Shown piece after piece: positions 11,445-53,236 of a stretch of DNA of 64,000 bases. Position 1 is the stretch's first letter. The number at the start of each line of letters is the position of its first letter. A model generated the notes under the pieces. That model saw nothing but the letters and a program-made list of their open reading frames with translations. It did no database searches and was not told the origin of the DNA. The position numbers were made by a program, and so were the translations under genes. Source of the stretch: Octopus vulgaris (Eukaryota); the NCBI GenBank assembly GCA_951406725.2, contig OX597839.1, positions 34,782,001 through 34,846,000 on the forward strand. Reading direction: 5' to 3'.

Positions 11445-11570
11445 TCAACTGGTGTCCAGTCGAATTAGTCTTAATTTGGAATTATCTGCCAAGACGCAGG
11501 CGGCTTCATTGGAGCCACCACAATATCTTGATGAAGAAAACACGGTCAACAGCTTCCCCTCCTGTTGCAC
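11445..11570 (-). CDS. Exon 19, last coding exon
   Basis: [41 protein letters not shown]. 126 nt including TGA. Confidence 0.95.
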   Translation of the reverse strand: MQQEGKLLTVFSSSRYCGGSNEAACVLADNSKLRLIRLDTS

Positions 11571-12624: not shown

Positions 12625-12656
<32 letters not shown>

Positions 12657-15600
12657 TTTAGGTATATGTGTGTATATATATATATATACATATACATATA
12701 ATGTACATATTTAACGAACGTTACAACAAAACAAATGGTCTGGACATAGTTTAAGAAACAGAATTAAAACGAAAATAAGTGCTGGGATCGAATAGTTCGA
12801 CCAAGTCTGTCAATCCGGTGCTCCAGCATGGCCGCAGTCCCATGGGTAAAAGAAGTAAGAGATTAGAGGAGAATCGGAATACAAACAAGAATATAAAATA
12901 ATAGTTCGATAAATAATATTTGCGGAAAGCATTCAAGGGGGACACAACTCTATCACTACAGAAATTAGTTTTAATAGTAGTGGTAGAGTTCTCTCCCTTG
13001 AGCATTACGTAACGTTTTGTTCATTTTAAACCTTTCATCGCCGATATTGAAGAAGAGGAATGAAAAAAACTCCTCACTGAGACGAAATAAGAATCTGGTT
13101 TTACCTGAAATCCAACTTGTTGCACTTCATGAGCTCTGATAACGTGTGACAAGTTGTTCCGGTGGAGAAAAGACTTTAGTGCCGAACAGCTGAAGACATG
13201 AGCCGTACCGCGACGAACGTTTCGAGAAAAGCCATGGTTTTCCTTCAGGCTTTGCAGCATTTCTGGTGTGATTTGATCCAGTCTGTGAATGGTGAATAAA
13301 AGAAGATGAACGAAGTGGTATATTGATTGATCTACGACGAAGTGCTATGAGTGTTCAATCTAAATTGAATACCCTCCATCAGGCATTTGCCATATTCTGA
13401 ACGCCTTACTTCTTCCCTGGCCATGGACACATTGAAACTCCGACGTCTGGCAGCTAACTTGGCAGACACCCATAAAATTATCAACCATCTTACGAACAAT
13501 AACTCTGAGCACCTTTCCAAACTCCACCCGGCAGACACCCATAAAGTTATTAACCATCTTACAAACAATAACTCTGAGCACCTTTTCAAACTCCACCCGT
13601 CTAACACCCGTGGACATATTTACAGAGTCAGAAAACAGCACAGTCCCATGACTTCAGGAAACATTTTTTCACGCTGAGAGTTGCTGAAGCATGGAACAAA
13701 CTGCCGGCTGTTAGTTGTCGGAGCACTGCATCCTTCAAAACTTCCATGCTTCCTGAGATTCGCCAACACTACACCTGATCTTGTCTTCCCCTCCATACAC
13801 ACGCAAGCATCTATCTGACTCATACATTGTTCGCTTTCCAGACATTTGTACATTACTGCATATACTTTATACGTACGTTCTGACAAGTTGTGGTGCACCT
13901 GAGCACTGTATACAATAATTTCATTATATGCAATAATAATAATGGTTTCAAATTTTGCCACAAGGGCAATAATTTTGGAGGAGGGGACGAGTCGATATAT
14001 CGACCCCAGTATGTAACTGGTACTAATTTTATCGACCCTGAAAGGATGAAAGGCAAAGTCGACCTCAGCGGAATTTGAATTCAGAACGAAACAACAGGCG
14101 AAATACCGCTAAGCGCTTTGTCCAGTGGCATTTTTGTCCATCTTCGTGTTCTGACTTCAAATTCTGTCAGATTGCATCCTGATAAAAAAAACTGCACTAC
14201 ACAACACCAAGGTTAACGATGGTCTTTTCTTCAACCACAAAATATATTTCTTTACTACCCACAGGGGGCTAAACACAGAGGGGACAAACAAGGACAGACA
14301 AACGGATTAAGTCGATTACATCGACCCCAGTGCGTAACTGGTACTTAATTTATCGACCCCGAAAGGATGAAAGGCAAAGTCAACCTCGGCGGAATTTGAA
14401 CTCAACGTAGCGGCAGACGAAATACGGCTAGGCTTTTCGTCCGGTGTGCTAACGTTTCTGCCAGCTCGCCGCCTTTTAAATAGCAGAAAAGTAGCCACAA
14501 AATAGCAGACGGCCTACTGGTCCCTGGCCACTTTATCATAAGTTAGTGCCAAGAATGCACACCAAAGAGTTGAAGAGACAACAAGGCACCAGGGCTGGAC
14601 GACATATAAGCCATCACCTCTGGAAGCCAGCCTTCCACAAACATCGGTCATTAGATTTCTGTGATGAGAGCAATAGAGGAAACGAACCAAGAGACTTCTC
14701 GAAGCCTTGAATTATGCATTGCTGAGTGGTAAGAAGCTTGCTTCCCAATCACAAGGTACCAGGTTCCGTCCCACTGTGTGGCACCTTGGGCAAGTGTCTT
14801 TCACTATAGCCTTGGGCTGACCAAAACCTTGTGAGTGGATTTGGTAGATGGAAACTGAAGGAAGCCTGTTATGTATATGTGTGTGTGTATGTATAAATGA
14901 ATGTGTCAGTGTTTGTTCCCTATTACTGCTTGACAACTTGTGTTGGTATGTTTACGTCCCCGTGACTTAGCAGTTTGGCAAAAAGCGTTGATAGAATAAG
15001 TACTGGAGTTGATTCGCTCGACTGAAAATTCTTGAAGGCAGTGGTGCCCCAGCATGGTCGCATTTCAGTGACTGAAACGAAGAAGAGAATAAAAGAATTC
15101 CAAAGAAAGGCATTGTTTGTCTCAGAACTGTCTAAGGAACACACTCCCACTTCTCCCCTTTGAGAAGAAAGAAGGGAGGGAGGCAGGACAGAAGAAAGGA
15201 AGGAAGAGGGACAAAAGGAATGAATGAAAGAAGGAAGGAAGGAATGAAAGGGAAGAAAGAAGGAATGAAAGAAAGAAGGAAGGAAAGAATGAAAGGGAAG
15301 AGAGGGAGAAAGGAATGAAAGGGAATAAGGAAGGAAGGACAGAAGAAAGGAAGGAAGAGGGGCAAAAGAAAGGAAGGAAGGAAGAGAGGAAAAAGAAAGG
15401 AAGGAAGGAGGGAATGAAAAGGAAGAAGAAAGGAAGAGGGGCAAAAGAAAGGAAGGAAGGAATGAAAGAGAAGAAGGAAGGAAAGAATGAAAGGGAAGAG
15501 AGGGAGAAAGGAAAGAAAGAAGGAAGGAATGAAAGGGAAGAGAGGTAGAAAGGAAGAGAAGTAAAAAAAGAAAGAGAGGAGGAAAGGAAAATAGAGAAGG

Positions 15601-17666
15601 AAGGAAGAGTTTGTGGTGAGGATGGTGGTTACTCACCCGATTGGATCGTTCCACATGAGTTCCCAGGCGAGAGGACTTTCCTCTTCGGGGTTGGGCAAAG
15701 GCACAGGAATGCTGTTGATGATCTCCATTTTGCCGTTGCCGTGGACAGGACTTGGGATCCCACCATGGGTGCAGAAGATCTGGCGCAAAAGAGGGAGCAC
15801 AATGAGTAACGGAAACAAACAAACAAACAAACAAAAGTGTTTTGGGAACGGGAGAGGGTGGAGGGAGGGGTCAATGATAAAAAAAAAATTGTGCTGGGAG
15901 TTAGGGGTCAGTGGTGATGGTCAGTTGAGTAAAATGTAACAGTAAAAGTGGTGGGCATGGGCGGGTGGTTAAAAAGCTTGTTTTGCGGCCACATGGTTTT
16001 TGGGTTCAGTCCCACTATGTGGCGCCTTGAGCAAGTGTCTTCCACTGTAAACCCGGGGCCAACCAAAGCCTTGTGAGTGGATCTCGTGTATGAAAACTGT
16101 GTTGAAGCCCATTGTATAATATGTGTGTGTGTGTCTTTATGTCTGTGTTTGTCATCACCCTCGCTATTTGATAACCGGTGATGGTTCGTTTACATCCCCA
16201 CCATGACTTAGTGGTTCAGCAAAAGAGACTGATGGAATAAGCACCACACTTAAAAAGATAAATGGTAGGAGTGAGGGCATTTCACCCTTTCCAGGTCGAT
16301 AAATTAAGTACCAGCAAAACACTGGGGGCAATGTAATCAACTAGACCCCCCCACCCCACAAATTTCAGGCCTTGTGCCTTTAGTAGAAAGGATTATTTTA
16401 CTTGGGAACAGTTGAGGGTTGGCAACAGGAAGAGCATCTGGTTGTAGAAAATCTACCTCAACAGATTTCATCTTGAGTGTAAGGGCTTACTCTAAGTGTT
16501 GAGTCTTGTCTTAAGTGCAAGGTTTTACTTGAAGTGGAGCGTCTTGCCTTAAGTAGAATATCTTACCTCTCACCTTTAGCACTCAGATTAATTATTCACA
16601 TTGTTTTCAATTAATCATGTTTTATCTCATAGCTTTGAGAATTCAATGATGTGATTGTTTATTTTTAGAATGACATTGTAGGATAGGTGTGAGAGCCCAG
16701 ATCTGTCCTGTTTGCACATAAAACAGGTAGAATATTTGGACCCTGGATATGACTGGGTTAAACACATGTTTCTGACATAACCATGAAGCTTAAAAGACTT
16801 AAGGCAGAGACATTAGAACTTCTGATATCCATGTCTTTCCTACATGGCATTAGCAAGATTTAGTGATGTGACATGTTTGTCAAATGGCAAAATAAACCAA
16901 AGTTGAAACCCTAATCCTTATTAAACCACTTAACCTTTCAGTATTCAGATTACTCTCTGTCAAATGTTAAGATCATTTATTCATATTGTTTGGAATTAAT
17001 CCTGTTATTCTCAAAGCTCTGAGAATTCAACAATGTGATTGTTTATTTTTAAAATGACATTGTAGGGTAGGTGTGAGAGGTCAGACCTGATTGGTTTGAA
17101 TATAAAACAGATTGGATATTTTGGCCAAAATATGGCTAGATTAAAACCTAAAAGGTTAAGTTTAGGGTCTTAAGTGAAGGGCCTTGCCTTAAGTGTAGGG
17201 TCTTTATGCGTAGAGTCTTACCTTTCCATCAATGACAGCAGACAGAGGCATACAGTCAAAGCATTCATTGATTGCTGCCCAGATCTTTTCTCCAACAGAA
17301 GTACCAAATTTGGTAAGACACTCACTGCAACGGGACGAGATGGAATAACAATTATTGGAGACACCAATTGGAGATTTACTGAAAATACGACGAGTGATGG
17401 TGTTGGTGATTTTGATGGTGGTGGTCATCATCATCATCATTATCGCTATCATCAACATTTAATATCCGTTTTCCATGCTGGCATGGGTTGGACAGCTTGA
17501 CAGGAACTGGCAAGACCAGGGGCTGCACCAGGCTCCAACTGTCCGCTTTGGCAGGGGGTTCTACAGCTGGATGCCCTTCCTGACACCAACCACTTTACAG
17601 AATGGATTGGGTGCTTTTTACGTGGTGCCAGCACCACCATTATCAATTTAATCTCTACCACCAAAC

Positions 17667-17702
<36 letters not shown>

Positions 17703-20700
17703 ACAGGCTTCTTTCAGTTTCCATCTTCCAAATCCACTCACAAGTCATCATCATCATCAACAACAACAACATTTAATGTTCGTTATCCATGTTGGCATGG
17801 GTTGGACGGTTTGACCAGGGCTGGCAAGGCTGGAAAGCTGCACCAGACTCCAGTCTGATTTGGCATGGTTTCTATGGCTGGATGCCCTTCCTAATGCCAA
17901 CCACTCTGAGAGTGTAAATGTTTGTCAATTGTTATAGATCTATTTTAACCGATGTGTGAAAACCGATGGGTAAAAACCAACTGAAACGGATGAAAACAAC
18001 TGGTTTCAATTTACAGATTTTGAGTTTATTGAGTCTGTTATTTTATTTCTGTTAATCACAAAGAAACCCCGTAAGAACTGAAGACCCACCCGAGATACTC
18101 ACAGTTTGAAACTGAAAACCTCCTGGATGTTACGAGTTTCGTGGTTGCCTCGAAGTAGATAGAATTTATTCGGAGAGAGGAGTTTTTGCGCAAATAAGTA
18201 CGACACGACCTGTGGGCAGGAGAAAATAGCAACGAACTTACTGCATGCAGCGCAAAGGTGCACTAAAACTCATCAGCAAAAAAACACAAACAAAACTGCA
18301 TGAACAGTAACACAAAATATGCATAGGAAATGCACAGAGAAAAAGTCTTTAAAAGGGGGGGGCCGGAATTCGATGTGGCATTGATGAATTTCAGGAAGCA
18401 TGGAAGTTTTGAAGGCTGCAAATGTTCAAACAGCTAATATCTTACTTCTTTACTGCCCAAAAGGGGCTACACAGAGCGTTGACCCTTCCAGCATACGACA
18501 GCTCAGTGACAACTAGTTTTAAATCTCTTTGTAACTACCTGACCCCTAACCTCTTGCCTGCTCTCTGAAGCGTCACCAGTTCAATCCCCACCCAGTCCAG
18601 CCTCTCATACCCCCTACATTCTGAACCTACCCAACAGGAGTTCAATTCCCATCATCTCCACAAGGGGCTACACAAACGGATTAAGTCGATAATATCGACC
18701 TCAGTGCGTAACTGGTACTTATTTAATCGACCCCCGAAAGGATGAAAGGCAAAGCCGACCGTGGCAGAATTTGAACTCAGAACGTAGTGGCAGACGAAAT
18801 ACTGCTAAGCATTTCGCCCGGCGTGCTAACGGTTCTGCCAGTTCGCCACCTTTAATAATAATAAATGATAATAATAATAATAATAATAATAATCCTTTGT
18901 TATAGGCACAAGGCCTGGTGTTTGTGGGATGGGGGAGGGAGCAGTTGATTAGATCGACCCGAGTACACAACTGGTATTTAATTTATCGACCCCCACAAAA
19001 GGATGAAAGGCAAAGTCGACCTCAGAGGAATTTGGACTCAGAACATAAAGACAGACGAAATACCACTAAGCATTTTGCCCAGCATGCTAACATTTCTGCC
19101 AGCTCGCTGCCTTAATAATCTTTTCTACTCTAGGCACAAGGCCTGAAATTTTGGGAGAGGTGGGGTCCAGTCAATTAGATCAACTCCAGTACACAACTGG
19201 TACTTAATTTATCAACCCCCACAAAAGGATGAAAGGCAAAGTCGACCGTGGCGAAATTCGAACTCAGAACCTAGTGGCAGACAAAATACTGCTAAGCATT
19301 TTGCCCGATGTGCTAACGTTTCTGCCAGTTCGCTGCTCTCAGCTAATATCTGATGCAGGTAGTTTATTCCATGCTTCAGTAATTCTGAGCGTGAAAAAGA
19401 TGTTTTTGAAAGCTATGGATGCTGCATTGTTTTTTGATTTTGCAAGCATTTACGCAAGTGTTAGACATGTGGAGTTCAAAAAAGGTACCCCAGGTCGTTG
19501 TTGGAAAGCTGATGGTAGATAATCTTGTGGGTGCCTACCAAGTGTGTCGCCAGATGTTTGAGCTTTTATGTGTCCATGTCGAAGGAAGCAAGACGTTCAG
19601 AATATGGTGGATGCCTGAAGGCAGGTATTGGTCTGGTTGCACGTTTCTGATCGGTCTCCAGAAGATTGATATACTGAGCAAGATTGGGTGTCAGGGGATG
19701 CAAACTCTAAGTGTGGACGTATCTTAGCCATATACAGCTTTAAATTGAAAGCTGAAGAGCGACTGATAAAGATCTTACTGAGTGATGCTAAGATACCCTC
19801 AGCCTTCTCAACAATCTTAGAGACGTGGTTTGTCCAACGCAAATCGCTGTTGACAATAATGTCAAAGTCATGTTCACTAGCAGACTTCTTCAGGTTGGTG
19901 TTGTAGAAGGACTATGTAAAAGCTTGGTTTCCTTTCTCAAAAGATAAGAAAAACCTTAAAAGATGAAACGTTTTGCAAATAATGCTTATCTTTTAGCCAT
20001 TTTCTAACCATTTTTCTCTTGAAATCCACTGCTTTTGTTTCAATTAATTTTGACAATTATGAAGAATTTAGCAAAATAACTTTGTCATTATTAAGCTGGT
20101 GTTTTGGGGCATAAAACGAATATATATTTATGCGTGTGTGTGTGTGTAGTATATTTACGTGACTTTACGTGACCAACCAGGCCATCAGATGTTGTTACAC
20201 ATTGCTGGTCACAATGCGTTCGCATTGTTTTAGCCTTCGAATGACACCACCCCGCTGGCTAAGCGAGCAGGCCAACAGAAGAAAGAGTGGGAGAAAGAGT
20301 GGTGAAAGAGTACAGCAGGGATCACCACCCCCTGCCGGAGCCTCGTGGAGCTTTTAGGTGTTTTCGCTCAATAAACACTCACAACGCCCGGTCTGGGAAT
20401 CGAAACCGCGATCCTGCGACCGCGAGTCCACTGCCCTAACCACTAGGCCATTGCGCCTCCGTGTGTAGTATATATTGTATTCAAAGAAGAGAAAATATAG
20501 TAATCTTACCTCAATGCCGTGTTCTCCTCTGTCCACATAGTCTCCAAGGAACAAAAAAGAAGCTGGTGTCAAAAGTGGGCCCATACGCCACAAGGACTTC
20601 TCAAAGGACACTAAGTCCCTGTAGTTGCCATGGATATCTCCTGAAAGTAAAGAAAGACTGGACTTCACTAACAACTTACCCTGACAATTGCTTTTTAAGC

Positions 20701-23700
20701 TTAAATTCATCACTATACTTTCCTGCATGTGTTGAGTGCGTTTCTGCGAGAGTGTGTGTGTGCAAGTGTGTTTATATGTGTGCCAATTATTTTTAACCCT
20801 TTCGTTACCCTATTTCTGTTGAGATGCTCTGTGTTTCTTTCAATTAATTTTAAATATAACAAAGAATTTAGTGAAATAAACTTAGTTATCATTCAACTAG
20901 TGTTAGGAACATTGGGACTGAATCCAGAACCATGTGGTTGGAAAGCAAGCTTCTTACCACACAGCCACGCCTATACATATGTGTGTGTGTGTTTGTTTGT
21001 TTGTTTACATCCCCCAATTGCTTGTATGAAAATGCAGCAGGTAGTTGGTGTTGTTATCAGTTTCTCCGGTCAACAAATCATCTGGTCCCTTCATCCTATC
21101 ATAGCCACAGGAAACAAAGGACCCATTACTCACAAAACAAGTAAGGGTTAGCAACAGCATCAGGAAGGGCATCCAGCTGTGAAACAACACCTCAAATAAC
21201 ATACTTCCCCAACCCATGCAAACACGGAAAAGAACAGGTGGCACGTAAAAAGCACCATCTTATCGTGGCCGTTTGCCAGCTTCGCCTGGCCTCCGTGCTG
21301 GTGGCACGTAAAAAGCACCATGCGATTGTGGCCATTTGCCAGCCTCGCCTGGCCTCCGTGCTGGTGGCACGTAAAAAGCACCATCCTATTGTGGCCGTAG
21401 CCAGCCTTGCCTCGCCTCCGTGCTGGTGGCATGTAAAAAGCACCATCCAATCGTGGCCATTTGCCAGCCTAGCCTGGCCTCCGTGCTGGTGGCACGTAAA
21501 AAGCACCATCCTATCGTGACCGTTTGCCAGCCTCATCTGGCACCTGCCAGTGGCACATAAAAAGCACCCACTACACTCATGGAGTGGTTGGCATTAGGAA
21601 GGGCATCCAGCCGTAGAAACACTGCCAGATCAGACTGGGCCTGGTGCAGCCTTCTGGCTTCTCAGACCCCAGTTGAACCCTCCAACCCATGCTAGCATGG
21701 AAAGCGGACGTTAAATAATGATGATGATGATGATGAACCTGGTTTTCTTTGAATGATGGGCTGAAAATATTGTTGTAGATTATACAAACCTAGGATGTAG
21801 GTGGGAGACTTTAACGATAAAAGCCTCGGCTCACTCTTAAGAATTTCTTTTATCTGAGAACAAAGGATGAGTAAACACTTGGCGAAGGCGTTGTAATCGA
21901 CGGCGCCCCATGAAAAGGCCTCCTGTAAGAGAAATGGATGAACAGATTAGAAAGATGTGTGTGTCTGGTTGGAGAAAAGAGAGGAGAGAGCTATGAGAGA
22001 GGCAATAGGGGACCAGAGAATTTGTTTGTTTGTTCCTTCTCGAGGCATACCTGGCTCATAAGGGCAGTTTTACGGTTTCCTTGGCATATAGGTTCCCCAC
22101 CTGGACAGGACGCCGGTCCATCACAATGTGAATAACAAGCAAAAATGTGAAAACTCATAGTGAAAGGCGCAGGAGTGGCTGTGTGGTAAGTGGCTTGCTT
22201 ACGAACCACATGGTTCTGGGTTCAGTCCCACTGCATGGCACCTTGGGTGAGTATCTTCTACTATAGCCTCGGGCCGACCAAAGCCTTGTGAGTGGATTTG
22301 GTAGACAGAAACTCAAAGAAGCCCGTTGTATATATGTATATATATATATGTGTATGTGCGTGTTTGTGTGTCTGTGTTTGTCCCCCCAACATCGCTTGAT
22401 AACCGATGCTGGTGTGTTTACGTCCCCGTAACTTAGCAGTTCGGCAAAAAGAGACCGATAAAATAAGTACTGGGGTTGATTTGCTCCATTAAAGGCGGTG
22501 CTCCAGCATGGCCACAGTCACATGACTGAAACAAGTAATAGAGTAAAGAGAGAGTAACTGGAACACTTTCGATAATAGGCCTGTTTGTTCAGGGCTGCCC
22601 TGGGACAATGTCCCAAGAGCATCTGGTCGCAATGTTTTAGGAAACCTACCTTACTCTCTTTGGTGATTGTAGCAATTTTCTCTCTTTCAAAATATCGCAG
22701 ACCAGTGAGCATCTCATTGGGGTGTGAACGCTGAAATGGAAACATCACTTGGTAAGTAACAGGCATTTAACATACAAAAAAGAGGTTGACAGAATAAGTG
22801 GTAGTCTTTGAAGGAGTCGTACCCAATGACTGGTGATGTCTTGTAAACAACTTGCACATGCAAGTACTATCAGTCAAAAGCTCCGTATACCGGAAGCCAG
22901 CAAGTGTATGGGGTCATCAGGAGAGAATGCGCGCTGTTTCGGGGCCTACCTCTCGACAGCATCAATGCGCACCAGCCCCCTTCACTGATATGAGGCCCCG
23001 CTTGCTAGATCAGCTGGTTATGAAGTTAAACTCAATATCCTTCTAGCCATCACTCATCGTCTCTTTTTAACCAAATCCAGTGGCTAGCCTTCTCCACTGT
23101 AGATTGTCAACTGCTACAAAGGTAAAATTGATGCTTTAGATAGAAATAACTATAGGGGTATCAATTTATTGGATCAGGTGATGAAAGTTACACAGACGGT
23201 CACAGTCCAACAATTAGGGAGGAAGATAGCCTAGATGAGAAGCAGTTTGGCTTTGTCACCACTGATGCTTTATATTTCTGGTAAGGCAACTGCAGGAGGA
23301 ATATCTAGCCAAAGATAAACCTCTGTACTTGGCTTTTGTTGACTTAGAGAAAGCCTTTGACAGGGTTCCGCAATCCCTTAGCTGGTGGTCAATGCGGAAA
23401 CTGGGGATAGACGAGTGGTTGGTAAGAGCTGTACAAGCCCTGTACAGGAATGCTGTCAGTAAGGTGAGGGTTGGCAACAAGTATAGTGAAAAATTCACTA
23501 GTGCTCACTCCAAACACCATGATGTTGATTGGATGTTTGATTTTTTTCTCTCTCCGTAGAAGCCCTCAGATTGCTACCCAAACACTCTGAAATGTTCGTA
23601 TCAGAGCTTCCGGTGTGAATGCCAAGCAGTACAGCATGTTGTTTCTAAATTTCTGGTAGAGTGAATTGTGTCATGGTGCTGTTTTTCTCACAGACAGTGC

Positions 23701-23798
23701 CCAACAGACCCTACTATACTGTGTAGTCGACAAAATCAAAAACAATCAATGCACATGCACGAAATTAAAATTATAAAATGGCGACAATTTACCCTCAC

Positions 23799-24166: not shown

Positions 24167-24967
24167 CATACACACACACAACATGCTTCTTTCAGTTTCT
24201 GTTTGCCAATTCCACTCACAAGGCTTTGGTCAGCCTGCGACTATAGAAGACACTTGTCCAAAGTGCCACACTGTGGGACTGAACCCTGAATCATGTGGTT
24301 GGGAAACGGACTTCTTACCACTCACCCAAACCTGTTCCATACACACACACACAGACAAAGGATTCCACACAGTTTCTGTTTACCAAATTCACTGACAAGG
24401 TAACGGTTGGCTTGTGGAGTAGAAGACGTTCGGCCAAGGTGCCAGTGCAGTGGAACTGAACCCAAAACTCCATGGCTGTTAAGCAGGCTTCTTAACCACA
24501 TGCCCATATATGGAGGGAAAACGCTGCTAATTTATTCAGATTTGTGTCGTGTTACCTGATTGAAAGAATCAACTGAAGACATTCTCTGGAACCTCGTCAT
24601 GTCCCCTTCTAAATGGATTGTGGATGAGGCACTCACAGCTTCTGTCCCTGTTGTTTACAAAGAAATTCAAGAAATCAAAATTAAACAAAAATACATTCAA
24701 CACAAAATGTCTTCTGGCTGTTCATTCTGTCTTGGTTTTCCTCACACACACACACACACACACACATACACACACACACACACACACAAACACATACACA
24801 CACATAAGCACACACACACATACACACACACATAAGCACACACACACATACACACACATAAGCACACACAAACACACACACACAAACACACACACACACA
24901 CACACACAAACACATACACACACAAACACAAACACACACACACAAACACACACATACATACACACAA

Positions 24968-25083: not shown

Positions 25084-26966
25084 GGGTGTCTTTCAGTTTC
25101 CATCAATCAAATCAACTCCCAGGGCTTTGAGTCGGTATGAGGTTGTAGTAGAAAAAAACCTGCCCAAAGTGCCATGCAGTGGGACGGAACCCAAAACTAT
25201 GAGGTTGGAAACATACTTCCGAACCACACAGCTGTACCTTATATCTATGATGAAGAAAACAATAAGTAAGAGAAGTAAGAAGATGCTGATGATAATGATG
25301 CTGATGATGATAATGGAAATGAATTTACCCCTTTCATTACCAACCTGGCTAAAACCTTCCCTGGCTCTGTAGTACAAATGTCTTGTTTTCATAAGTTCTG
25401 AATTAAAATCTTCCACCAAACCTTAGTCACAGTTTATGTTCTTAACACTAGCTTAATGATAACTAAGTCATTTTACTAAATTCTTTGTTATCATCATCAT
25501 CATCGTTTAGCGTCCACTTTCCAAGCTAGCATGGGTTGGACGGTTCAACTGGAATCTGGGAAGCCAGAAGGCTGCACCAGGCCCAGTCTGATCTGGCAGT
25601 GTTTCTACGGCTGGATGCCCTTCCTAACGCCAACCACTCCGTGAGTGTTGTGGGTGCTTTTTACGTGCCACCTGCACAGTTGCCAGACGAGGCTGGCAAA
25701 CGGCCACGATTGGATGGTGCTTTTTACGTGCCACCGGTACGGGGGCCAGACGAGGCTGGCAACGGCCACAATCGGATGGTGCATTTTATGTGCCACCGGC
25801 ACAGAGGCCAGTCGGGGCAGGGCTGGCAACAGCCACGTTCAGATGGTTATATTTAAAATTAATTGAAAGAAACACAGAGCATCTCAAAATAAATACAGTA
25901 ATGAAAGAGTTAAAGATGGAATGACAATAAAATGTCAGCTGGAGTAAGTTACCTTCTAAATCCCAGATTGCCATTACATCAGCCAGAGTGCCGGTCCGTC
26001 GCACTTTGACGGTGTGTGTTGCAAGTTCATAGTTTTTCGTAGGAAGAGGATCAGCTTTGTTGTTGCACGAAGTGTCATGAGTACCATCGCTGTCACTAGC
26101 ATCTGTTAAGACACGTCAGAAGAGAAAGAGGGGGATTTAAGATTGGTATTTGATGTATGACACACAAGAGGTAAGGATTTTATGATACATGTTAGATGTA
26201 TGACATGTCAGAAAGTGGCAAGCTGGCAGAACCGTTAGCACTGAGGTCAAAATGCTTAGCAGTGTTTCCTTCGGTTCAAATCCTGCCAAGGTCAGCTTTG
26301 CCCTTCATCTCTTCGGGTGGCTTGATAAAATAAAGCACCGGTCAAGGACTGGGGTTGATGTAATCAACTTGTTCCCTCACCTCAAAAAAAAAAGAAGAAA
26401 AAAGAAAAAGACGAAGGGCCTTGAAGCCTGCAATGGTCAAACATTCTGTTCTAGGGTAATGTGTTGTGATTCTGGTCACTTTTGAGTCCTGAGGCTCAAG
26501 GGGTTTAAAAAATAAAAGACAAATTAGAGGGAAGTGTTTGTATATATGTATATATGCGGCATTCAAAATGTGACCGCGTGTGTACCGTTGACGATTTTTT
26601 TTCCTCTGTCTTTCCTTCTCTGGTTCTTTCCTTCTCCTATGTTTCCGACGAAGAGGTCTGCTCGAAACGTTAAACCCTTCTTCCCTTCCTTCCTGAGCAT
26701 CCAATAATACTATAGTTTTTCCACGTCCTCGCGTTGTTGTGTTTTCATGTTTGGATTAACTTTTTATATATATATATATATATAATTTACAAGATAAGGG
26801 CAGAAGAAAAATTCTAATGCCAAGTATGCTGAAACATACTTGGCATTATAATTTTTCTTCTGCCCTTATCTTGTAAATTAGTTATAAATTTAACCTTTAA
26901 AGGTATTTTTTGATATGCTGGCCATTGATAAAATTTTTTTCCCCAAAAAAATTTTATCCTACATTA

Positions 26967-32942: not shown

Positions 32943-33359
32943 ATGTCTGTGTTTGTCCTCCTAGCATTGCTTGACAACCGATGTTGGTGTGTTTATGTCC
33001 CCGTCACTTAGCGGTTCGGCAAAAGAGACCGATAGAATAAGTACTGGGCTTACAAAGAATAAGTCCCGGGGTCGAGTTGCTTGACTAAAGGCGGTGCTCC
33101 AGCATAGCCGCAGTCAAATGACTGAAACAAGTAAAGGAGTAAAGAGAGATATTTACCGAAATTCAGAAGGCTCCAGAAATCCTTCTTTGTGAGAACTGTA
33201 GAAGCGGAAAATATATTTGCAGCGAATTTCAGCAGAACCACCACCATGGTTTGTATGAGGGTCGAGAGCTGCCAAACCAATGTAGAAATGTTTGAAGGAA
33301 AGAAATTTCTTTCTGCCAACATCAAAGGCCCTGAAGAAGAAGAAGAAAGGAACTATATA

Positions 33360-37038: not shown

Positions 37039-40000
37039 CATATATATATACATATATATATATGCATATATATATATATACACATATATACATATATATA
37101 TATACATATATATATACAGAGATACATACATATATATATACATATATAGACATACACACATAACAGGCTTCTTTACCATTTCCATCAACCAATTTTCACT
37201 CACAAGGCTTTGGTCAGCCCATGGCTATAGTAGAAGACACTTAACCGAAGGTGCCACACAATGGGACCGAACCTGAAATCATGTGCTTGAGAAGGAAGCC
37301 TGTCTACCACATAGCCACACCTACGCCACAAAATACACACATCATCATCATTGTCGTCATTCAACATCTGCTGTCCATGCTGGCATGGGTTGGATGGTTT
37401 AACTGAGGGCTGGCAAGCCAGATGGCTGCACCAGGCTCCAATCTAATCTGACAAGGTTTCTACAGCTAGTTGCCCTTCCTAATGCCAACCACTCCGGGAG
37501 TGTAGTTGGTGCCTTTTGTATATATGTATATATAGATAGGTACAGGAGTGGCTGTGCAGTAAGTAGCTTGCTTCCCAACCACATGGTTCTGGGTTCAATC
37601 CCAGTGCATGGCACCTTGGGTAAGTGTCTTCTACTATAGCCTCAGGCCAACCAAAGCCTTGTGAGTAGATTTGGTAGATGGAAACTAAAAGAAGCCCATT
37701 GTGTGTGTGTGTATCATCATCTTTCAATGCCTGCTTTTAATGATTTGGATGGTTTGATTGAGGACTGGAAAGCCAGGAAGCTGCACCAGGCTCCAGTCTA
37801 ATCTGGCAAGGTTTCCAGAGCTGGATGCCCTTCCTAATGCCAACCACTCCGAGAGTGTAGTGGTTGGCATTACACATGGGATATTTACTTGGGAATCCTT
37901 CGTGATTAATGTCAGCTTAAGAGAGAAGGAAAGAAGAGAAAGGTGAGCAGATGAGAAAAGCTGAAAGGCAAGAAACGAAGAAGAAGTGGCTGTCATCCAG
38001 CGCTACTCACTGATGTTGTGAGAATGTCTGAGTCGGTGGAGTCATCAATGGCTTCAGTGTGGAATATGAAGTGGGTAGAGATAGGCAAGTTTTCCAGTCT
38101 GCGGATGTAAGTGTGGACCACACCGACGGCCGGCACGACTGAGCCAATGTACTGAAAGAGAAAATAATAATAATAATAATAATAATGATTTCAAATTTCT
38201 TTTGCCACAAGGGCAGCTTGGGGGAAGGGATTAAGTCAATTACATTGACCCCCAGGTTGTAACTGGTACTTATTTAATCGACACAGAAAGGATGAAAGGC
38301 AAAGACGACCTCGGCGGAATTTGAACTCAGAACGTAGCGGCAGACGAAATACCTATTCCTTTACTACCCACAAGGGGTTAAACACAGAGAGGACAACTTA
38401 TTTAATTGACCCCGAAAGGATGAAAGACAAAGTCGACCTCAGCGGAATTTGAATTCAGAACGTAATGGCAGACGAAATACCTATTTCTTTACTACCCACA
38501 AGGGGCTAAACACAGAGGGGACAAACAAGGACAGACAAACTGATTAAGTCGATTATATCAACCCCAGTGCGTAACTGGTACCTATTTAATCGACCCCGAA
38601 AGGATGAAGGGCAAAGTCGACCTCGGCAGACAGCTGCTCTGGCAGTGATCCCACTTGGATGGAGCTGTTAGCGCGCCACTGGCACAGGTGCCAGTCATCG
38701 AATTTGGTTCAATTTTGATTTCACTTGCCCCAACAGGTCTTCTTGTGTCCAAAGAAGGAAAGGTATGCATAAGTGAACAAACATAATCCTTTCTACAATA
38801 TGCACAAGGCCTGAAATTTAGGGTAAGAGGTTATTTGATCACATCAACCCCAGTTATATATATTATGTATATATATATATGTTATATATATATCAAATGC
38901 CTTGCCAAAAAACCTGAGGGATTTTCATGGAGTAGTTATCATTAAGGTAGTGTTAGGAACATAAATTGTGACTAAGGTTTGGTGGAAGATTTTAATTCAA
39001 AACTTATGAAAACAAGACATTTGTACTACAGAGCCAGAGGCAGTTTCAATTGGGATGGTATCAAAATGGTTAAGAATTGTTTCTCTATTATATATTTTAA
39101 CCCTTTCTTTACTGTATTTATTTTGAGATGCTCTGTGTTTCTTTCAATTGATTTTAAATGTAACAAAGAATTTAGTAAAATAACTTAGTTATCATTAAGC
39201 TAGTGTTAGGAACATAAATTGTGACTAGGGTTTGGTGGAAGATTTTAATTCAAAACTTATGAAAACAAGACATTTGTACTACAGAGCCAGAGGCAGTTTC
39301 AATTGGGATGGTATCAAAATGGTTAAGAATTGTTTCTCTATTATATATTTTAACCCTTTCTTTACTGTATTTATTTTGAGATGCTCTGTGTTTCTTTCAA
39401 TTGATTTTAAATGTAACAAAGAATTTAGTAAAATAACTTAGTTATCATTCAGCTAGTGTTAGGAACATAAATTGTGACTAGGGTTTGGTGGAAGATTTTA
39501 ATTCAAAACTTATGGAAACAAGACATTTGTGCTATAGAGCCAGAAACAGTTTCATCTAGGTTGGTATCAAAAGGGTTAAGAATTGTTTCTCTATTGTATA
39601 TTTAAACAATATTGTAAAATGGGGAAATTTTGTGTTTCTATCAATTACTTTGAATATACCAAAGAATTTAGTAAAATAACTTAGTTATCATTAAGCTAGT
39701 GTTAGGAACATAAATTGTGACTAGGGTTTGGTGGAAGATTTTAATTCAGAACTTTTGAAAAGACACTTGTACTACAGAGCCAGCCAGGTTGGTAACCAAA
39801 GAGTTAATCACAGAACCACACCCACAGCCTAGTTGAAGATGATGATTCAATGATAGCAACAGATGGCCTGATTTAAACAGGATGTCAGATAAGCAGGATA
39901 TTATATTACTAGTTTCAACTTCTAACTCTTCAATAGTGCACAGCATGTGGCCCAAATACTCAATTATAAATAACCTAGTTTATTGTAAGTTGACAGAAGC

Positions 40001-40921
40001 TTGTTTGTCCATTCCTTTGTTTTCATCCTAGCATGGGTTATGTGTGTAGGAAGGTATTTCGTATTTCACAGGCCAGATGCCCTTCCTGTCTTTGAAGGCC
40101 TGACATGAGTGGATGATTTGTGGACAGGAGGAATGACAACAATAGTATTATTTGTAGTAAGGGGCTTTCCTAATGTGGTAATGTAAACAGGCGCAGGAAT
40201 GGCTGTGTCCCAACCACATGGTTCAGGGTTCAGTCCCACTGTGTGGCATCTCGGGCAAGTGTCTTCTACTATAGCCTCAGGCCAACCTTGTGAGTGGATT
40301 TGGTACACAGAAACTGAAAGAAGCCTGTTCTATGTAAAAATATATGTATGTGTGTGTGTTTGTGTGTCTGTGTTGGCTATGTCCCAACCACATGGTTCAG
40401 GGTTCAGTCCCACTGTGTGGCACCTCATGCAAGTGTCTTCTACTATAGCCTCAGGACGACCTTGTGAGTGGATTTGGTAGACAGAAACTGAAAGAAGCCT
40501 GTTCTATGTAAAAATATATGTGTGTGTATGTGTTTGTGTGTCTGTGTTTGTACCCCCAAGATTGCTTGACAACCGATGTTGGTGTGTTAACATCACCGTA
40601 ACTTAGCAGTTCGGCAAAAGAGACCGATAGAATAAGTACTAGGCTTACAAAGAATAAGTCCTCGGATCAGTTTGTTCGACTAAAGGTGGTGCTCCAGCAT
40701 GGCCACAGTCAAATGACTGAAACAAATAAAAGAATTTTAAAATAAGTATTCAGTCCACTCTGTGGGGTGGTTGGTGTTAGGAAGGGCATCCAGCTCTAAA
40801 ACCCCTACCAAAACAAACAGTGAAGACTAGTGCAGTCTTCTGCCTAGCCAGCCCCTATCAAACCATCCAACCCATGCCAGCATGGAAGACGGATGTTAGA
40901 TGATGATGGTGGTGGTGGTGG

Positions 40922-40973
<52 letters not shown>

Positions 40974-49900: not shown

Positions 49901-50045
49901 GATGGTGCAATGTGAAGGAGTTTTGGCTGCTTTTACCAGCAGATCGAGAGCTCGCATCTTGGAGCAGCACCCTGTATGGGTCCATGGAAAAAAAAAAACA
50001 GATGCTATATATATATACATACACACACGTATATATGTATATGTG

Positions 50046-50095
<50 letters not shown>

Positions 50096-50292
50096 TCAAA
50101 ACAAAGATGGATTAAGAAGGGTTTAAAAAGGAATTAGTAATCCATATATATATATATATAATAAATAAACAAATGTATATAACATTATTTCTACTCTCTT
50201 TCTCTCTATATATATATTATATATATATATATATATTATACATGCATACATACATTCACACACGTATGCATACAATATAGATATATATGTAG

Positions 50293-50357
<65 letters not shown>

Positions 50358-51387: not shown

Positions 51388-51450
<63 letters not shown>

Positions 51451-51451
51451 C

Positions 51452-51489
<38 letters not shown>

Positions 51490-53236
51490 GTAGATAGATA
51501 GGTAGATAGATAGATGATAGATAGACAGACAGAGATAGATAATTAGATAGATAGATAGATAAATGGATGGATGGATAGATAGATAGATAGATAGATAGAT
51601 AGGTAGATAGACAGATAGGTAGATAGATAGGTAGATAGATGATAGATAGACAGACAGAGATAGATAGATAGATAATTAGATAGATGGATAGATAGGTAGA
51701 TAGACAGATAGATAGACAGACAGACAGAGATAGATAGATAAATAGATGGATGGATAGATAGACAGATAGATAGAAAGATAAATAGGTAGATAGATAGAGA
51801 GAGAGAGAGAGAAATAAATAGACAGATAATCTAATCTTCCCAGACTACTTCGAGATATTGGTCGATCGCACAATCAAGTAGAAATAGCAGCCAAATCTTA
51901 CTGAAATAACATCTCACTGTATTAAAACAGGAAGGACAACGTTAGATATAATATACGCCTGTGGCCACAACATATTTAAAAAGAAAAGGTAAATAAACAA
52001 GGATGGGCGTGGCTGGAAGGTCTTTTTCATCAAGTCTGTTCGATTAACACAGGCCTGGACCAACGACAACAACAATAATAATAACTTGTTGAGGTAAATG
52101 AGAGGGAGCCTGGATGTGGTTGTTTGGTTTGCTAAAAGTAGCAGCCATATCCCACTTTTATGAAACAGGGAAGGACACACATTGGATAATAAAGGTAGTC
52201 ATGGATACAGATTGCCTACATGTGTGTGTGTGTGTGTGTGTGAGCATAAATGATGGGATGGTTAAGGTTTGGATGTCGACTGAAGCAGGGCTGACCTGGG
52301 GCTGAAGGAACGACACCGCCCCATGTGTGTGTGTGTGTGCATGAGAGAAAGATAGATAGATAGAGAGAGAGAGGATGGATAGAAAGCGGGGAAGATAGAT
52401 AGATAGATAAATATATGGATAGAAAGAAAGAAACAGCGATAAACAACAAATAGATTGATAGCGGGAAAGAGAGAGAGAGGGAAATAGGCAGAAAGACAAA
52501 AAGATAGAGAGAGAGAGACAGATAGATACATATATATAGAGAGAGAGAGAAGGGTTAAGAGAGACAGATAGATACACAGAGAGAGATAAATAGATACATA
52601 GAGAGAGAGGCAAATAAATAGATACATAAACAGAGAGAGAGAAAGGTTAAGAGAAACAGATAGATAGATACACAGAGAGAGAGAGACAGATAGATACATA
52701 GAGAGAGAAGGGTTAAGAGAGACAGATACTACATAGAGAGAGACAAATACATAAATAGATACATAGAGAAAAAGACAAATAGATATAGATACATAGAGAG
52801 AGAAGGTTTAAGAGAGACAGATAGATACAAAGAGAGATAAATAGATAGAGAGAGAGAAGGTTAAGAGAGATAGATAGATACACAGAGAGAGAGAAGGGTT
52901 AAGAGAGATAGATAGATACAGAGAGAGACAGATAGATACATAGAGAGAGAGGCAAATAAATAGATACATAAACAGAGAGAGAGAAGGGTTAAGAGAGACA
53001 GATAGATAGATACATAGACAGAGAGGGTGGACGAAATGGAAACGGTTATTGTGAATTTCAAGTGTTACCTTGTTCATGATCCTGTGTAGGGTTTCGTCCA
53101 GGTGCCGTTCGTTGGTTCGGCGACGACCTGTCGGCAACCAGAAACCATTCTGTTTATGGTTTACCAAGAGGAACCTTCCGTCGGTCACCCTCGCCGCCAA
53201 AATACTGACGATTTGTGAGGATCTGGTGGCAGACAT
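11445..53236 (-). CDS. 19-exon gene, 787 aa: pseudo-Nudix + NCS/calcineurin-B-like EF-hand module + PPP-family Ser/Thr protein phosphatase (uncharacterised architecture)
   Basis: Manual splicing gives 19 exons totalling 2364 nt with GT-AG junctions and matching phases, ATG at 53236 and TGA at 11445-11447. PPP motifs GDIHG, GDYVDRG, RGNHE, HGG, WNDP, RAHE and FSSSRYC occur in canonical order. Confidence 0.92.
11823..11872 (-). ncRNA. G3-C8 hammerhead-like motif in intron 18, sense to the gene (mirror copy at 11902-11951 on +)
   Basis: Same family and fold as 2300-2350. Confidence 0.65.
12060..12480 (-). mobile_element. tRNA-headed, hammerhead-bearing element with partial inverted duplication
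   Basis: Head 12243-12310 has A box TGGCGTATTGG and B box GTTCGATTCC, then an (AAC)n linker and a hammerhead. Inverted copy at 12311-12480, (TA)n flanks. Confidence 0.75.
12128..12173 (-). ncRNA. Type I hammerhead inside a tRNA-headed element in intron 18
   Basis: GACAC-CTGATGA-a-GGCTG gagggtatat CAGCC-GAAA TA TT-GTGTT. AUU site. Confidence 0.75.
13105..13282 (-). CDS. Exon 18 (RRG and IRAHE)
   Basis: [60 protein letters not shown]. 178 nt, phase 2-0. Confidence 0.96.
13340..13930 (+). mobile_element. CR1/L2-like LINE 3' fragment
   Basis: Peptide [20 protein letters not shown]...NTRGH resembles the CR1 ORF2 C-terminus. A related decayed piece lies on minus at about 19345-19935. Confidence 0.8.
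15637..15779 (-). CDS. Exon 17 (HGG and WNDP)
   Basis: [47 protein letters not shown]. 143 nt, phase 0-2. Confidence 0.96.
17222..17324 (-). CDS. Exon 16
   Basis: [35 protein letters not shown]. 103 nt, phase 2-0. Confidence 0.95.
18103..18209 (-). CDS. Exon 15 (PPP motif RGNHE)
   Basis: [35 protein letters not shown]. 107 nt, phase 0-2. Confidence 0.96.
20510..20640 (-). CDS. Exon 14 (PPP motifs GDIHG and GDYVDRG)
   Basis: [44 protein letters not shown]. 131 nt, phase 1-0. Confidence 0.96.
21235..21735 (+). mobile_element. Repeat family C with (GAT)n tail and internal ~57-60-bp tandem units (also about 25490-25845, 28990-29355, 43915-44275, 45140-45540, 46880-47340, 60775-61135)
   Basis: Shared GTGGCACGTAAAAAGCACC units and 3' GGAAGGGCATCCAGC...CCAACCCATGCTAGCATGGAA...GATGATGAT. 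Confidence 0.85.
21790..21922 (-). CDS. Exon 13 (start of PPP catalytic domain)
   Basis: [44 protein letters not shown], comparable to the PP1 segment before GDIHG. 133 nt, phase 0-1. Confidence 0.92.
22650..22730 (-). CDS. Exon 12
   Basis: [27 protein letters not shown]. 81 nt, phase 0-0 using donor GTAGGT. Confidence 0.85.
23125..23500 (+). mobile_element. Decayed RTE-clade reverse transcriptase fragment
   Basis: [34 protein letters not shown], with upstream stops. Confidence 0.85.
24556..24647 (-). CDS. Exon 11
   Basis: [31 protein letters not shown]. 92 nt, phase 1-0. Confidence 0.87.
25953..26102 (-). CDS. Exon 10
   Basis: [50 protein letters not shown]. 150 nt, phase 1-1. Confidence 0.88.
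26641..26675 (+). ncRNA. Minimal hammerhead, U4C variant
   Basis: GTTT-CCGACGA-a-GAG gtctg CTC-GAAAC GTT-AAAC. Palindromic ACGT stem III, GUU site. Confidence 0.72.
28017..28078 (-). CDS. Exon 9 (polar linker)
   Basis: [21 protein letters not shown]. 62 nt, phase 2-1, needed to reconcile the phases of exons 8 and 10. Donor GTGAGT. Confidence 0.82.
28110..28660 (+). mobile_element. RTE (BovB-like) LINE 3' fragment with open frame; second copy at about 30733-31095
   Basis: [13 protein letters not shown]...[15 protein letters not shown]...YFGHIM...[11 protein letters not shown], followed by a short simple-repeat tail. Confidence 0.93.
29517..29660 (-). CDS. Exon 8 (EF4-like and following segment)
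   Basis: [48 protein letters not shown]. 144 nt, phase 2-2, donor GTAAGA. Confidence 0.88.
31815..31898 (-). CDS. Exon 7
   Basis: [28 protein letters not shown]. 84 nt, phase 2-2, acceptor ttccag, donor GTAAAC. Confidence 0.87.
33157..33330 (-). CDS. Exon 6 (EF2/EF3-like hands)
   Basis: [58 protein letters not shown]. 174 nt, phase 2-2. Confidence 0.9.
33884..34009 (-). ncRNA. Type I hammerhead with long (~90 nt) loop II in intron 5, sense to the gene
   Basis: ATCT-CTGATGA-GGCCT...AGGCT-GAAAC AGCT GTA-AGAT. Palindromic ACAGCTGT stem III, GUA site. Confidence 0.75.
34511..34634 (-). CDS. Exon 5 (EF-hand module, EF1-like)
   Basis: [41 protein letters not shown]. 124 nt, phase 1-2. Confidence 0.88.
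34724..35082. repeat. Tandem duplication of a ~179-bp segment in intron 4
   Basis: Near-identical copies start at 34724 and 34903. Confidence 0.9.
35930..36037 (-). CDS. Exon 4
   Basis: Acceptor ttccag, [36 protein letters not shown], donor GTTTGT. 108 nt, phase 1-1. Confidence 0.85.
36244..36358 (-). CDS. Exon 3 (end of Nudix-like domain)
   Basis: Acceptor tttcag, [38 protein letters not shown], donor GTATTT. WFSLEEL is typical of Nudix C-terminal strands. 115 nt, phase 0-1. Confidence 0.85.
38011..38151 (-). CDS. Exon 2 (Nudix-like)
   Basis: Acceptor tttcag, [47 protein letters not shown], donor GTGAGT. 141 nt, phase 0-0. Confidence 0.85.
38935..39806. mobile_element. Tandem array of a piggyBac-type MITE, 253-bp period (also about 45107-46248, 35250-35825, 20793-20910, 25325-25912)
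   Basis: Units bounded by TTAA-CCCTTT...AAAGGG-TTAA. Identical ORFs at 38979 and 39232 are exactly 253 bp apart. Confidence 0.8.
40981..41110 (-). mobile_element. Old LINE ORF2 C-terminal relic
   Basis: [33 protein letters not shown], with stops. Confidence 0.7.
42426..42840. repeat. Compound (CTA/CTG/CTT)n trinucleotide repeat
   Basis: Direct reading; explains the poly-L/Y/S pseudo-ORFs. Confidence 0.97.
44406..44440 (-). ncRNA. Hammerhead of the 26641 family with a non-cleavable GUG site
   Basis: ATTT-CTGATGA-a-GAGC tct GCTC-GAAAC GTG-AAAT. Confidence 0.65.
48821..49092. mobile_element. MITE with CpG-rich imperfect TIRs
   Basis: GTACTACTTAAGAAG / CTTCTTAAATAGTAC, and inner CTAGTCGTGACTAGTCGATCCT / AGGATCGACTAGTCGCGACTAG. 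Confidence 0.75.
49271..49646. mobile_element. MITE with ~90-bp TIRs
   Basis: GGCGATCTTTCGTCTCTAGTAGACCTTTCCGTCG... mirrored by ...CGACGGAAAGGTCTACTAAAGACGAAAGATTGCC. Confidence 0.88.
50767..51092. mobile_element. MITE with ~30-bp TIRs
   Basis: ACTTTGTTTCCTCATAACTTTCTTT / AAAGAAAGTTATGAGGAAACAAAGT. Confidence 0.75.
51390..51830. repeat. (GATA)n microsatellite (others at 55575-55655 and 58545-58870)
   Basis: Direct reading. Confidence 0.95.
53069..53236 (-). CDS. Exon 1 (aa 1-56), first half of Nudix-like domain
   Basis: [56 protein letters not shown], then donor GTAAC (phase 0). Joins exon 2 in frame to give a Nudix-box-like G-x5-E...R...G. Confidence 0.8.

Follow-up and report, generated by a model that had tools for sequence, protein, structure and literature searches.

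A PPP Phosphatase Gene of Octopus vulgaris Joining a Pseudo-Nudix Fold, an NCS-Type EF-Hand Module, and a Catalytic Domain of an Ancient, Apparently Unnamed Lineage

Introduction

The usual list of PPP phosphatases comprises PP1, PP2A, calcineurin (PP2B/PP3), PP4, PP5, PP6, and PP7 (PPEF/RdgC), with the BSU1/PPKL phosphatases assigned to plants and protists. Calcineurin A carries a B-binding helix, a calmodulin site, and an autoinhibitory domain past its catalytic domain, and calcineurin B has four calcium loops. PPEF/RdgC proteins follow the order IQ motif, PPP domain, and EF hands. Here, we describe a PPP phosphatase gene in a stretch of repeat-rich Octopus vulgaris DNA of 64,000 nucleotides (assembly GCA_951406725.2, contig OX597839.1, positions 34,782,001 to 34,846,000), hereafter the window. 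The gene lies at 11445..53236 on the minus strand and encodes a 787-aa protein, P0001 (CAI9741501.1), in which a Nudix-like fold, an EF-hand module of neuronal-calcium-sensor (NCS) type, a linker, a pre-catalytic segment, and a PPP domain follow one another. It belongs to a real, ancient, and apparently unnamed PPP lineage.

In Kerk et al. (2021, PMC8249667), Bsu1 proteins without Kelch repeats but with EF hands are described from an apusozoan, choanoflagellates, a fungus, and a stramenopile; the organisms given for these "EF-hand Bsu1s" are an apusozoan, choanoflagellates, Basidiobolus, Nannochloropsis, and Cryptosporidium, and the 27 Bsu1 rows in parts C and D of Table S4 list no animal and no Nudix domain. 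The apicomplexan EFPP is described as a likely inactive pseudophosphatase (PMC3447748) that is cytoplasmic and dispensable in Toxoplasma (PMC8785970). BSU1 is blocked by its CDK-phosphorylated tail (bioRxiv 10.64898/2026.01.06.697939). No paper on the animal family or its Nudix fusion was found by a search that left most subscription literature outside, and the family is not described in the passages seen of PMC2559854, PMC2175518, PMC10214084, PMC6501069, and PMC10746186.

Results and Discussion

Domain Order and Catalytic Domain

The gene consists of 19 exons, from an ATG at 53236 to a stop codon ending at 11445, with 2364 nt of coding sequence and 18 introns that are all GT-AG. The spliced exons translate to P0001 letter for letter, and the span and length given by an earlier sequence-only reading of the window were exact. 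Comparisons with Atlas models, an AlphaFold model, and motif positions bore out its order of a Nudix-like part, four helix-loop-helix units, a linker, a further segment, and a PPP domain; the motifs that it quoted for the further segment lie at residues 398-411, 457-462, and 484-487. We favor, at somewhat better than even confidence, the reading that P0001 acts as a Ser/Thr phosphatase in one chain, probably in the nucleus, and that its ancient lineage is likely sister to BSU1/PPKL, with a floppy linker between its two modules.

Exon 13 (21790..21922, aa 482-526; all exons are given as window positions on the minus strand) encodes an invariant W-G and the first helix of the PPP domain. GDxHG, followed by Asn, and GDxVDRG are encoded by exon 14 (20510..20640, aa 526-569), GNHE by exon 15 (18103..18209, aa 570-605), the PPP core by exon 16 (17222..17324, aa 605-639), HGG and WxDP by exon 17 (15637..15779, aa 640-687), and the second clamp arginine (R711) and RAHE by exon 18 (13105..13282, aa 687-746). 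The coding part of exon 19 (11445..11570, aa 747-787) holds an altered SAPNY loop with Tyr762 and Cys763 and a last strand at which the protein ends. With motifs defined as in PMC8249667, P0001 has them at residues 526, 558, 590, 644, 682, 711, 736, and 757; GDxHG, GDxVDRG, GNHE, HGG, WxDP, RxH, two clamp arginines, and the loop Tyr-Cys are all present, confirming the proposed PPP domain with all metal-binding motifs.

Among 54 aligned relatives, each motif was intact in 51-54, and the rows that lack one are truncated or broken models. Three marks set the family apart, namely Asn after GDxHG (232/237), a Ser-rich loop replacing SAPNY, and a protein end at the last strand. P0001 stops two residues past this strand, as do 50 of the 54 rows, and neither the alignment nor the model has a B-binding helix, a calmodulin site, or an autoinhibitory tail after the catalytic domain. 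Kelch was absent from the Pfam families shown for the 54 members and for P0001. P0001 is a PPP-family phosphatase with all metal and phosphate ligands intact and with predicted Ser/Thr phosphatase activity.

Elsewhere in the octopus genome, three loci carry the motifs of PP1, two those of PP2A, and others those of PP4, PP6, calcineurin A, and PPEF, their class labels resting on motifs that we take to be diagnostic; no PP5 was found in the searches for octopus PPP loci and tree outgroups. The two PP2A catalytic genes stand in tandem (G000:C21:16.98-17.04 Mb, L033-L039), and the second has diverged around the WxDP loop. The PPEF/RdgC-like locus (G000:C16:24153580-24154314, L052) is an intronless 650-codon frame whose branch is very long; it may be a retrocopy.

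Linker and Pre-Catalytic Segment

Exon 9 (28017..28078, aa 353-374) encodes polar linker sequence containing K-K/R-x-K/R (aa 366-369, 28030-28041), a predicted nuclear localization signal, and exon 10 (25953..26102, aa 374-424) the remainder of the linker. Its length varies from 41 to 88 residues across relatives. Although it lies within the least conserved stretch, K-K/R-x-K/R is kept in 53/54 relatives, against 8.2/54 expected after shuffling. This is the pattern of a classical nuclear signal, and the octopus phosphatase is likely nuclear. In two Mytilus edulis models (P0020 and P0023), a repeated insert with TfoX_C-like and other weak Pfam matches sits in or before the linker and is probably a repeat caught in the gene model.

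Beyond the linker, aa 398-490 are conserved to the same degree as the catalytic core. Exon 10 contributes a conserved pre-catalytic beta-hairpin (aa 403-418), exon 11 (24556..24647, aa 424-454) the motif R-x-x-S-[VI]-D-x-F, a candidate phosphorylation site whose R445 and S448 are each found in 53/54 relatives, and exon 12 (22650..22730, aa 455-481) a near-invariant helix at 457-469. When the C-terminal half of a relative, P0015, was modeled with a deeper alignment, these segments folded with the catalytic domain (predicted local distance difference test score, pLDDT, 89; predicted template-modeling score, pTM, 0.88), with pLDDT of 77-82 for the hairpin, 62 for the R-x-x-S region, and 87-95 for the helix. 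Because cryptophyte and Rhodelphis relatives without EF or Nudix parts retain recognizable pre-catalytic segments, these segments are part of the catalytic unit and not of the EF module. The first module would thus comprise aa 398-787, with the hairpin and helix predicted to fold onto the catalytic domain and to act as a built-in regulatory subunit, and phosphorylation of Ser448 would likely be its switch.

Placement among PPP Classes

Three trees were built: a quick tree of 68 rows, a tree of 34 rows with PPEF, and a tree of 24 rows without PPEF under a mixture model. Near-copies and long branches (mites, P0163, the P0213 domains, P0182, and P0225) were dropped from the last two. The outgroups were whole metagenome open reading frames (ORFs) labeled by motif, P0191, and the intronless octopus PPEF-like ORF; PP5 and the published EF-hand Bsu1 sequences were in none of the three. 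In all trees the family lay on one side of a long branch, with Shimodaira-Hasegawa approximate likelihood ratio test (SH-aLRT) support of 100 in the 68-row tree and branch support of 100/99 (34 rows) and 100/100 (24 rows) in the other two, where its stem was 1.0-1.7 changes per site. The catalytic domain is its own ancient PPP clade. The proposal of a distinct subfamily outside PP1, PP2A/4/6, calcineurin, and PPEF was upheld by this clade, those classes being found at separate octopus loci. Database names that make the protein an orthologue of PP1 or PPEF were rejected.

The nearest tested class, both in the trees and in a PDB sequence search, was BSU1/BSL/PPKL of plants, green algae, and alveolates. 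In the 34-row tree, the log-likelihood (lnL) cost was 0.23 for pairing the family with BSU, 10.6 for calcineurin (approximately unbiased test p value, p-AU, 0.19), 14.5 for PP1 (0.06), and 18.3 for PP2A (0.05). In the 24-row tree, the family with BSU was split from PP1, PPZ, PP2A/4/6, and calcineurin at 99/98, and the PP1 and PP2A pairings were rejected (p 0.02). The family was not grouped with calcineurin in any tree (forcing this cost 10.6-12.5 lnL), nor with PPEF with support. The BSU rows formed one side of a branch that excluded the family (99, 100/99, and 94/89), so the catalytic domain is beside, and not nested in, the BSU1/PPKL rows tested. The best natural single-domain PDB sequence match was BSU1 (176.7 bits), followed by PP1 (169.8) and calcineurin (158.7). 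Kelch phosphatases made up 4/8 Atlas structure rows, and an Atlas structure alignment covered 342 residues from 394 at a template-modeling (TM) score of 0.78.

The family and BSU1/PPKL also share an accessory domain first and the PPP domain last and Tyr-Cys in the toxin loop; a similar order of a pre-catalytic strand, R-x-x-S-I-D-x-F, a helix, and Trp is suggested by eye, with weak statistics. Unlike BSU1/PPKL, the family has no Kelch repeats, no C-terminal tail, and a long separate stem. Taken together, these comparisons suggest that the family is likely sister to the BSU1/PPKL (Kelch) phosphatases, a position that is favored, not proven. P0001 is outside PPEF and the Kelch-bearing PPKL and most probably outside calcineurin; in its way of working it would come closest to a single-chain holoenzyme from the BSU1/PPKL side.

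Several observations weigh against this reading. The outgroup rows are metagenome ORFs with class labels by motif only; the 99/98 split could reflect the position of the root in a tree that lacks PPEF, with PP5 in no tree; and when PPEF is included, two long branches meet and the attachment of the family is open. A pairing with calcineurin keeps p-AU values of 0.19 and 0.09, the family profile ranks calcineurin (217 bits) over PP1 (209), with RAHE in common, and Foldseek places PP1, calcineurin, and PP2A equally near (29-34% identity), and its displayed rows contain no BSU1 chain. The pre-catalytic segment is unplaced in the full-length model (pLDDT <50). Its match to that of BSU reached an hhalign probability of 0.27, which is not significant, 1/40 shuffles scoring higher, and an ordered-motif test gave p <0.04 in 5/9 BSU rows, all close kin, against 0/11 other PPPs and was passed by just 6/13 protist rows of the family. 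Finally, activity, nuclear location, calcium response, and phosphorylation are all inferred.

EF-Hand Module

Exon 4 (35930..36037, aa 142-178) encodes a short strand and the helix with which the EF module opens. In the AlphaFold model, eight helices form four helix-loop-helix units at aa 178-330 after this leading helix. Exon 5 (34511..34634, aa 178-219) encodes EF1, with an NCS-type loop that is not a calcium site; exon 6 (33157..33330, aa 219-277) EF2 with a basic loop, an invariant HGG insert, and EF3; exon 7 (31815..31898, aa 277-305) the exit helix of EF3 and the entry helix of EF4; and exon 8 (29517..29660, aa 305-353) a degenerate EF4 and the invariant segment that closes the module. 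With P0122, a relative without a PPP domain, as the query, the module matched KChIP4 (E 2e-7), Frq1 (1e-6), hippocalcin, and recoverin, and calcineurin B at just 0.18. Cys-Pro in the EF1 loop is a feature of neuronal calcium sensors; here the Pro is kept in 53/54 relatives (167/170 wider rows) and the Cys in 35/54, octopus having Tyr-Pro where the NCS type has Cys-Pro. By these comparisons, the EF module is of NCS/KChIP type, not calcineurin B. Like KChIP, NCS-1/Frq1, hippocalcin, and recoverin, it has four EF units after a leading helix and Cys-Pro in a dead EF1; unlike them, it is embedded in an enzyme, with a basic EF2, a degenerate EF4, an HGG insert, and no free N-terminus for myristoylation.

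EF2 was canonical in 0/54 relatives and EF4 is degenerate. EF3 is the only intact calcium loop, being canonical in 47/54 relatives and 107/179 wider rows. The octopus EF3 loop (aa 264-275, 33162..33197, coordinates derived from the exon translation) has Ser, His, and Glu at ligand positions 1, 3, and 5, and a canonical EF3 is absent from 15/15 cephalopod sequences and from 57 other, mostly divergent, rows. None of the four EF units of P0001 contains a canonical calcium loop. Because EF3, the sole good loop, is degenerate, the octopus protein likely binds no calcium and its enzyme is likely calcium-independent. For the majority of animals, binding of a single calcium ion at EF3 would be expected to tune the unit formed by this module and the Nudix fold, and in coleoid cephalopods, including octopus, the enzyme would have lost this response. 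Fused to the dead Nudix fold, the EF module would form a second module (aa 7-345), likely a targeting or substrate-docking unit.

The strongest alternative, tentative as it is, makes P0001 the animal orthologue of the published EF-hand Bsu1/EFPP group, with the Nudix cap as the sole addition. By eye, within the first 400 characters of each table sequence, the EF-hand Bsu1 rows of Thecamonas, Cryptosporidium, Nannochloropsis, Basidiobolus, and Monosiga show the same EF module, sharing with the octopus family an HGG-type insert, a Y-I-F-x-x-Y-D EF3, and a closing G-T-x-x-L-F-R. In PMC8249667, such proteins also have the EF module before the PPP domain and a catalytic domain on the BSU1 side of the tree, and they occur in choanoflagellates. 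The sequence-only reading had held that no named animal PPP class has the order seen here or a Nudix domain: the 27 Bsu1 rows list no Nudix domain, but EF hands before a PPP domain are already published for protists. Our trees favor BSU kinship, and two NCBI records carry BSU1/BSL1-like names. However, the residue after GDxHG is Gln, as in BSU1, in the three EF-hand Bsu1 rows where the motif is visible, as opposed to Asn in the octopus family, which points to separate clades. Guillardia, moreover, has both a listed Bsu1 (XP_005824960.1) and a distinct member of the octopus-family clade (XP_005828635.1), and the family stands beside, not inside, the BSU rows tested, the published EF-hand Bsu1s being outside the trees. 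We infer that the Cryptosporidium row is EFPP, which is described as likely inactive, whereas the octopus family retains all ligands.

An unlikely alternative is the single-chain calcineurin of the sequence-only reading, in which the EF module would hold, in cis, a helix belonging to the catalytic half, with calcium turning on activity. The family shares with calcineurin a PPP domain, a four-EF module that here precedes it, RAHE and the region before it, and about 32% catalytic-domain identity; NCS modules grip target helices, one loop is canonical in most relatives, and the trees tolerate the pairing at the p-AU values given above. The top Foldseek matches of the full model (pTM 0.54) were engineered EF-subunit/calcineurin A fusion chains. 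Because their root-mean-square deviation is 22-29 A, this resemblance is one of fold order only. In contrast to calcineurin, the NCS-like module is fused at the N-terminal side and has no more than one calcium loop, and the protein ends with the catalytic domain. The candidate helix to be clamped, 457-469, already packs in a model of the catalytic half by itself and is retained in protists without EF hands, and octopus has its own calcineurin A locus. In Table 2 of PMC10214084, Leu follows the loop Tyr in calcineurin, whereas Cys does in the octopus family. The likeness to calcineurin was thus not supported, the best trees placing the family beside BSU1/PPKL, and gating by EF hands in cis was not borne out for octopus, with EF3 lost throughout the cephalopod sequences and no confident EF-to-PPP packing in the full-length model. 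PPEF/RdgC also joins EF hands and a PPP domain in a single chain but in the opposite order, the EF hands of the octopus family being N-terminal to the PPP domain, and octopus has its own intronless PPEF-like gene.

Nudix-Like Part

Exon 1 (53069..53236, aa 1-56) encodes the first Nudix strands, the W-x-P motif, and most of a dead Nudix box, exon 2 (38011..38151, aa 57-103) the core strands, and exon 3 (36244..36358, aa 104-142) the end of the fold with the conserved W111, G130, E132, and P133. In the AlphaFold model, aa 7-142 adopt a Nudix topology (pLDDT about 90), and an Atlas model of this region matched Nudix clusters at TM 0.72. Pfam NUDIX matched 4/54 relatives (best E 6e-7), P0001 itself being unmatched. 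The catalytic Nudix box has the pattern GX5EX7REUXEEXGU. Counting from the Pro of W-x-P, the two catalytic Glu, at positions +17 and +21, were each found in 0/54 relatives and the box Gly in 7/54; the full pattern matched 0/54. The fold and the position of the box are therefore those of Nudix hydrolases, but the catalytic Glu is lost, in agreement with the pseudo-Nudix proposal. An active Nudix hydrolase was rejected.

A dead Nudix fold could still sense a ligand such as ADP-ribose, an Ap4A-type nucleotide, an RNA cap, or an inositol pyrophosphate and so gate or target the phosphatase, as pseudo-Nudix sensors exist, such as the NUDT9-H domain of TRPM2. The fold is kept from coral to amphioxus, ticks, and insects (32/68 representatives of at least 700 aa), and W33, W111, G130, and E132 are nearly invariant. 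Even so, we regard a sensor as improbable. The Nudix part has the lowest mean column identity of the folded parts (0.40, against 0.64 for EF and 0.78 for PPP), it is absent from protist members of the same catalytic clade, and its conserved columns across the 54 relatives, which are Gly, Trp, Pro, hydrophobic, a few acidic, and one basic, contain no cluster of basic or metal-binding residues. Gating by a nucleotide-type ligand, as suggested earlier, was not supported, as a conserved basic pocket is missing. Because the conserved columns are mostly Gly, Trp, Pro, and hydrophobic, the fold is likely kept for structure or protein contact without an evident phosphate pocket, and it likely serves as a structural cap or a protein-binding surface, not a nucleotide sensor.

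Gene Model and Transcript Evidence

The ATG is preceded, 8 codons upstream, by an in-frame stop. A search with a single exon retrieved P0001, and exons 12 and 14 each have one match in the octopus genome at the search threshold. Exons 3-4-5-6 were joined at the predicted splice sites, with 0 mismatches, on a single contig per run in 4/4 runs from 4 studies. These runs were taken as RNA by guess, with no RNA label on record; because the joints are spliced, the contigs are of mRNA origin. The contigs are 3247-3334 nt long, which, once exons 1-2 are counted on one side and exons 7-19 on the other, leaves 21-177 nt and 706-922 nt, respectively. The spliced contigs would end at 10523-10739 if they carried all downstream exons, and the only AATAAA in the range allowed by their lengths lies 809 nt past the stop (10631..10636, minus strand). 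Splicing was thus seen directly at 3/18 junctions, joining the Nudix exon 3 to EF exons 4-6; the remaining 15, and with them the connection to the phosphatase exons that the proposed fusion involves, are supported by the length of the contigs, by the poly(A) signal, and by full-length relatives. Such relatives occur in >10 phyla, many on 2.6-4.8 kb contigs that are too short for introns, and O. sinensis has a 787-aa gene model. That the fusion is an annotation artefact joining two neighboring genes was rejected as extremely improbable: the O. bimaculoides annotation has two fragments (P0003 and P0004) and few junctions were seen directly, but full-length relatives exist, and one mRNA agrees with both the lengths of the contigs and the presence of a single poly(A) signal nearby.

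Distribution of the Family

Named members of the family come from molluscs, a brachiopod, annelids, nemerteans, hemichordates, echinoderms, amphioxus, Ciona, Priapulus, and corals, as well as from arthropods (ticks, spiders, mites, Limulus, a centipede, crustaceans, a beetle, and a moth) and a tardigrade. Organism names were sought for 20/150 representatives, and the 10 that had one include Hanusia with Guillardia, Rhodelphis, and Pseudo-nitzschia. The protist relatives in the catalytic clade have neither Nudix nor EF parts. Identity within the family is about 45-70% over most phyla of invertebrates, and the lineage is traceable to cryptophytes, rhodelphids, and diatoms. An invertebrate subfamily, as claimed earlier, was therefore right as to its wide occurrence in invertebrates; the catalytic lineage, judged by the protist sequences, is not animal-only. 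Among the 68 representatives of at least 700 aa, 32 have Nudix, EF, and PPP parts, 29 EF and PPP, and 7 PPP alone. The named rows include no vertebrate, fly, or nematode, no search aimed at those groups having been made, and they suggest a loss of the family in vertebrates. In the Atlas feature list of the catalytic part, clusters from nematodes come first.

Many representatives, P0111, P0149, and P0220 among them, are divergent copies, three of which are named as mite proteins, which suggests an expansion in mites; such copies often have an altered EF3, with an acidic residue replacing Glu12. A metagenome contig (L106:1694-4707) carries a compact, short-intron copy of the whole Nudix-EF-PPP gene.

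Other Features of the Window

A perfect inverted repeat with 225-bp arms (1171-1395 and 1525-1749; 100% identical, 129 bp apart) is either a recent foldback duplication or an assembly artefact. Two related fragments in introns of the gene (28045-28653 and 30694-31084, plus strand), for which Pfam gave just DUF6451 at E 0.03, resemble the 3' end of the reading frame of an RTE-type long interspersed nuclear element (LINE). A reverse transcriptase fragment (RVT_1, E 3.5e-4) lies at 23266-23559 (plus strand), and two LINE-like remnants without a clear Pfam match lie at 13369-13677 and 19597-19911. Intronic tandem arrays with units of 174-253 bp and 90-96% identity were found at 38933-39783, 45699-46248, 34724-35083, 40200-40548, and 31291-31657, and 62-68 bp arrays occur at several places, one of them in the 3' untranslated region (11020-11331).

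Conclusion

A wider reading, to which we give slightly less than even confidence, is that the family would be an additional, unnamed animal PPP class and a sibling of the plant and apicomplexan Kelch phosphatases. It would be a nuclear one-chain holoenzyme with a regulatory hairpin, an NCS-type sensor, and an animal-added pseudo-Nudix cap, present from corals to tunicates, expanded in mites, and calcium-uncoupled in coleoid cephalopods; it would have been missed so far because vertebrates and the main model animals dropped it. A further PPP lineage would mean a revised tally for the earliest animals, with the BSU1 side of the tree reaching into Metazoa. The family also offers a natural experiment, its catalytic unit being found in three settings: without an EF module, joined to one that is calcium-competent, and joined to one that is calcium-blind. 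The gene is tractable in beetles, moths, ticks, mites, oysters, sea urchins, and Ciona. Should the family really be missing from vertebrates, it would be a candidate for selective inhibitors in ticks and mites.

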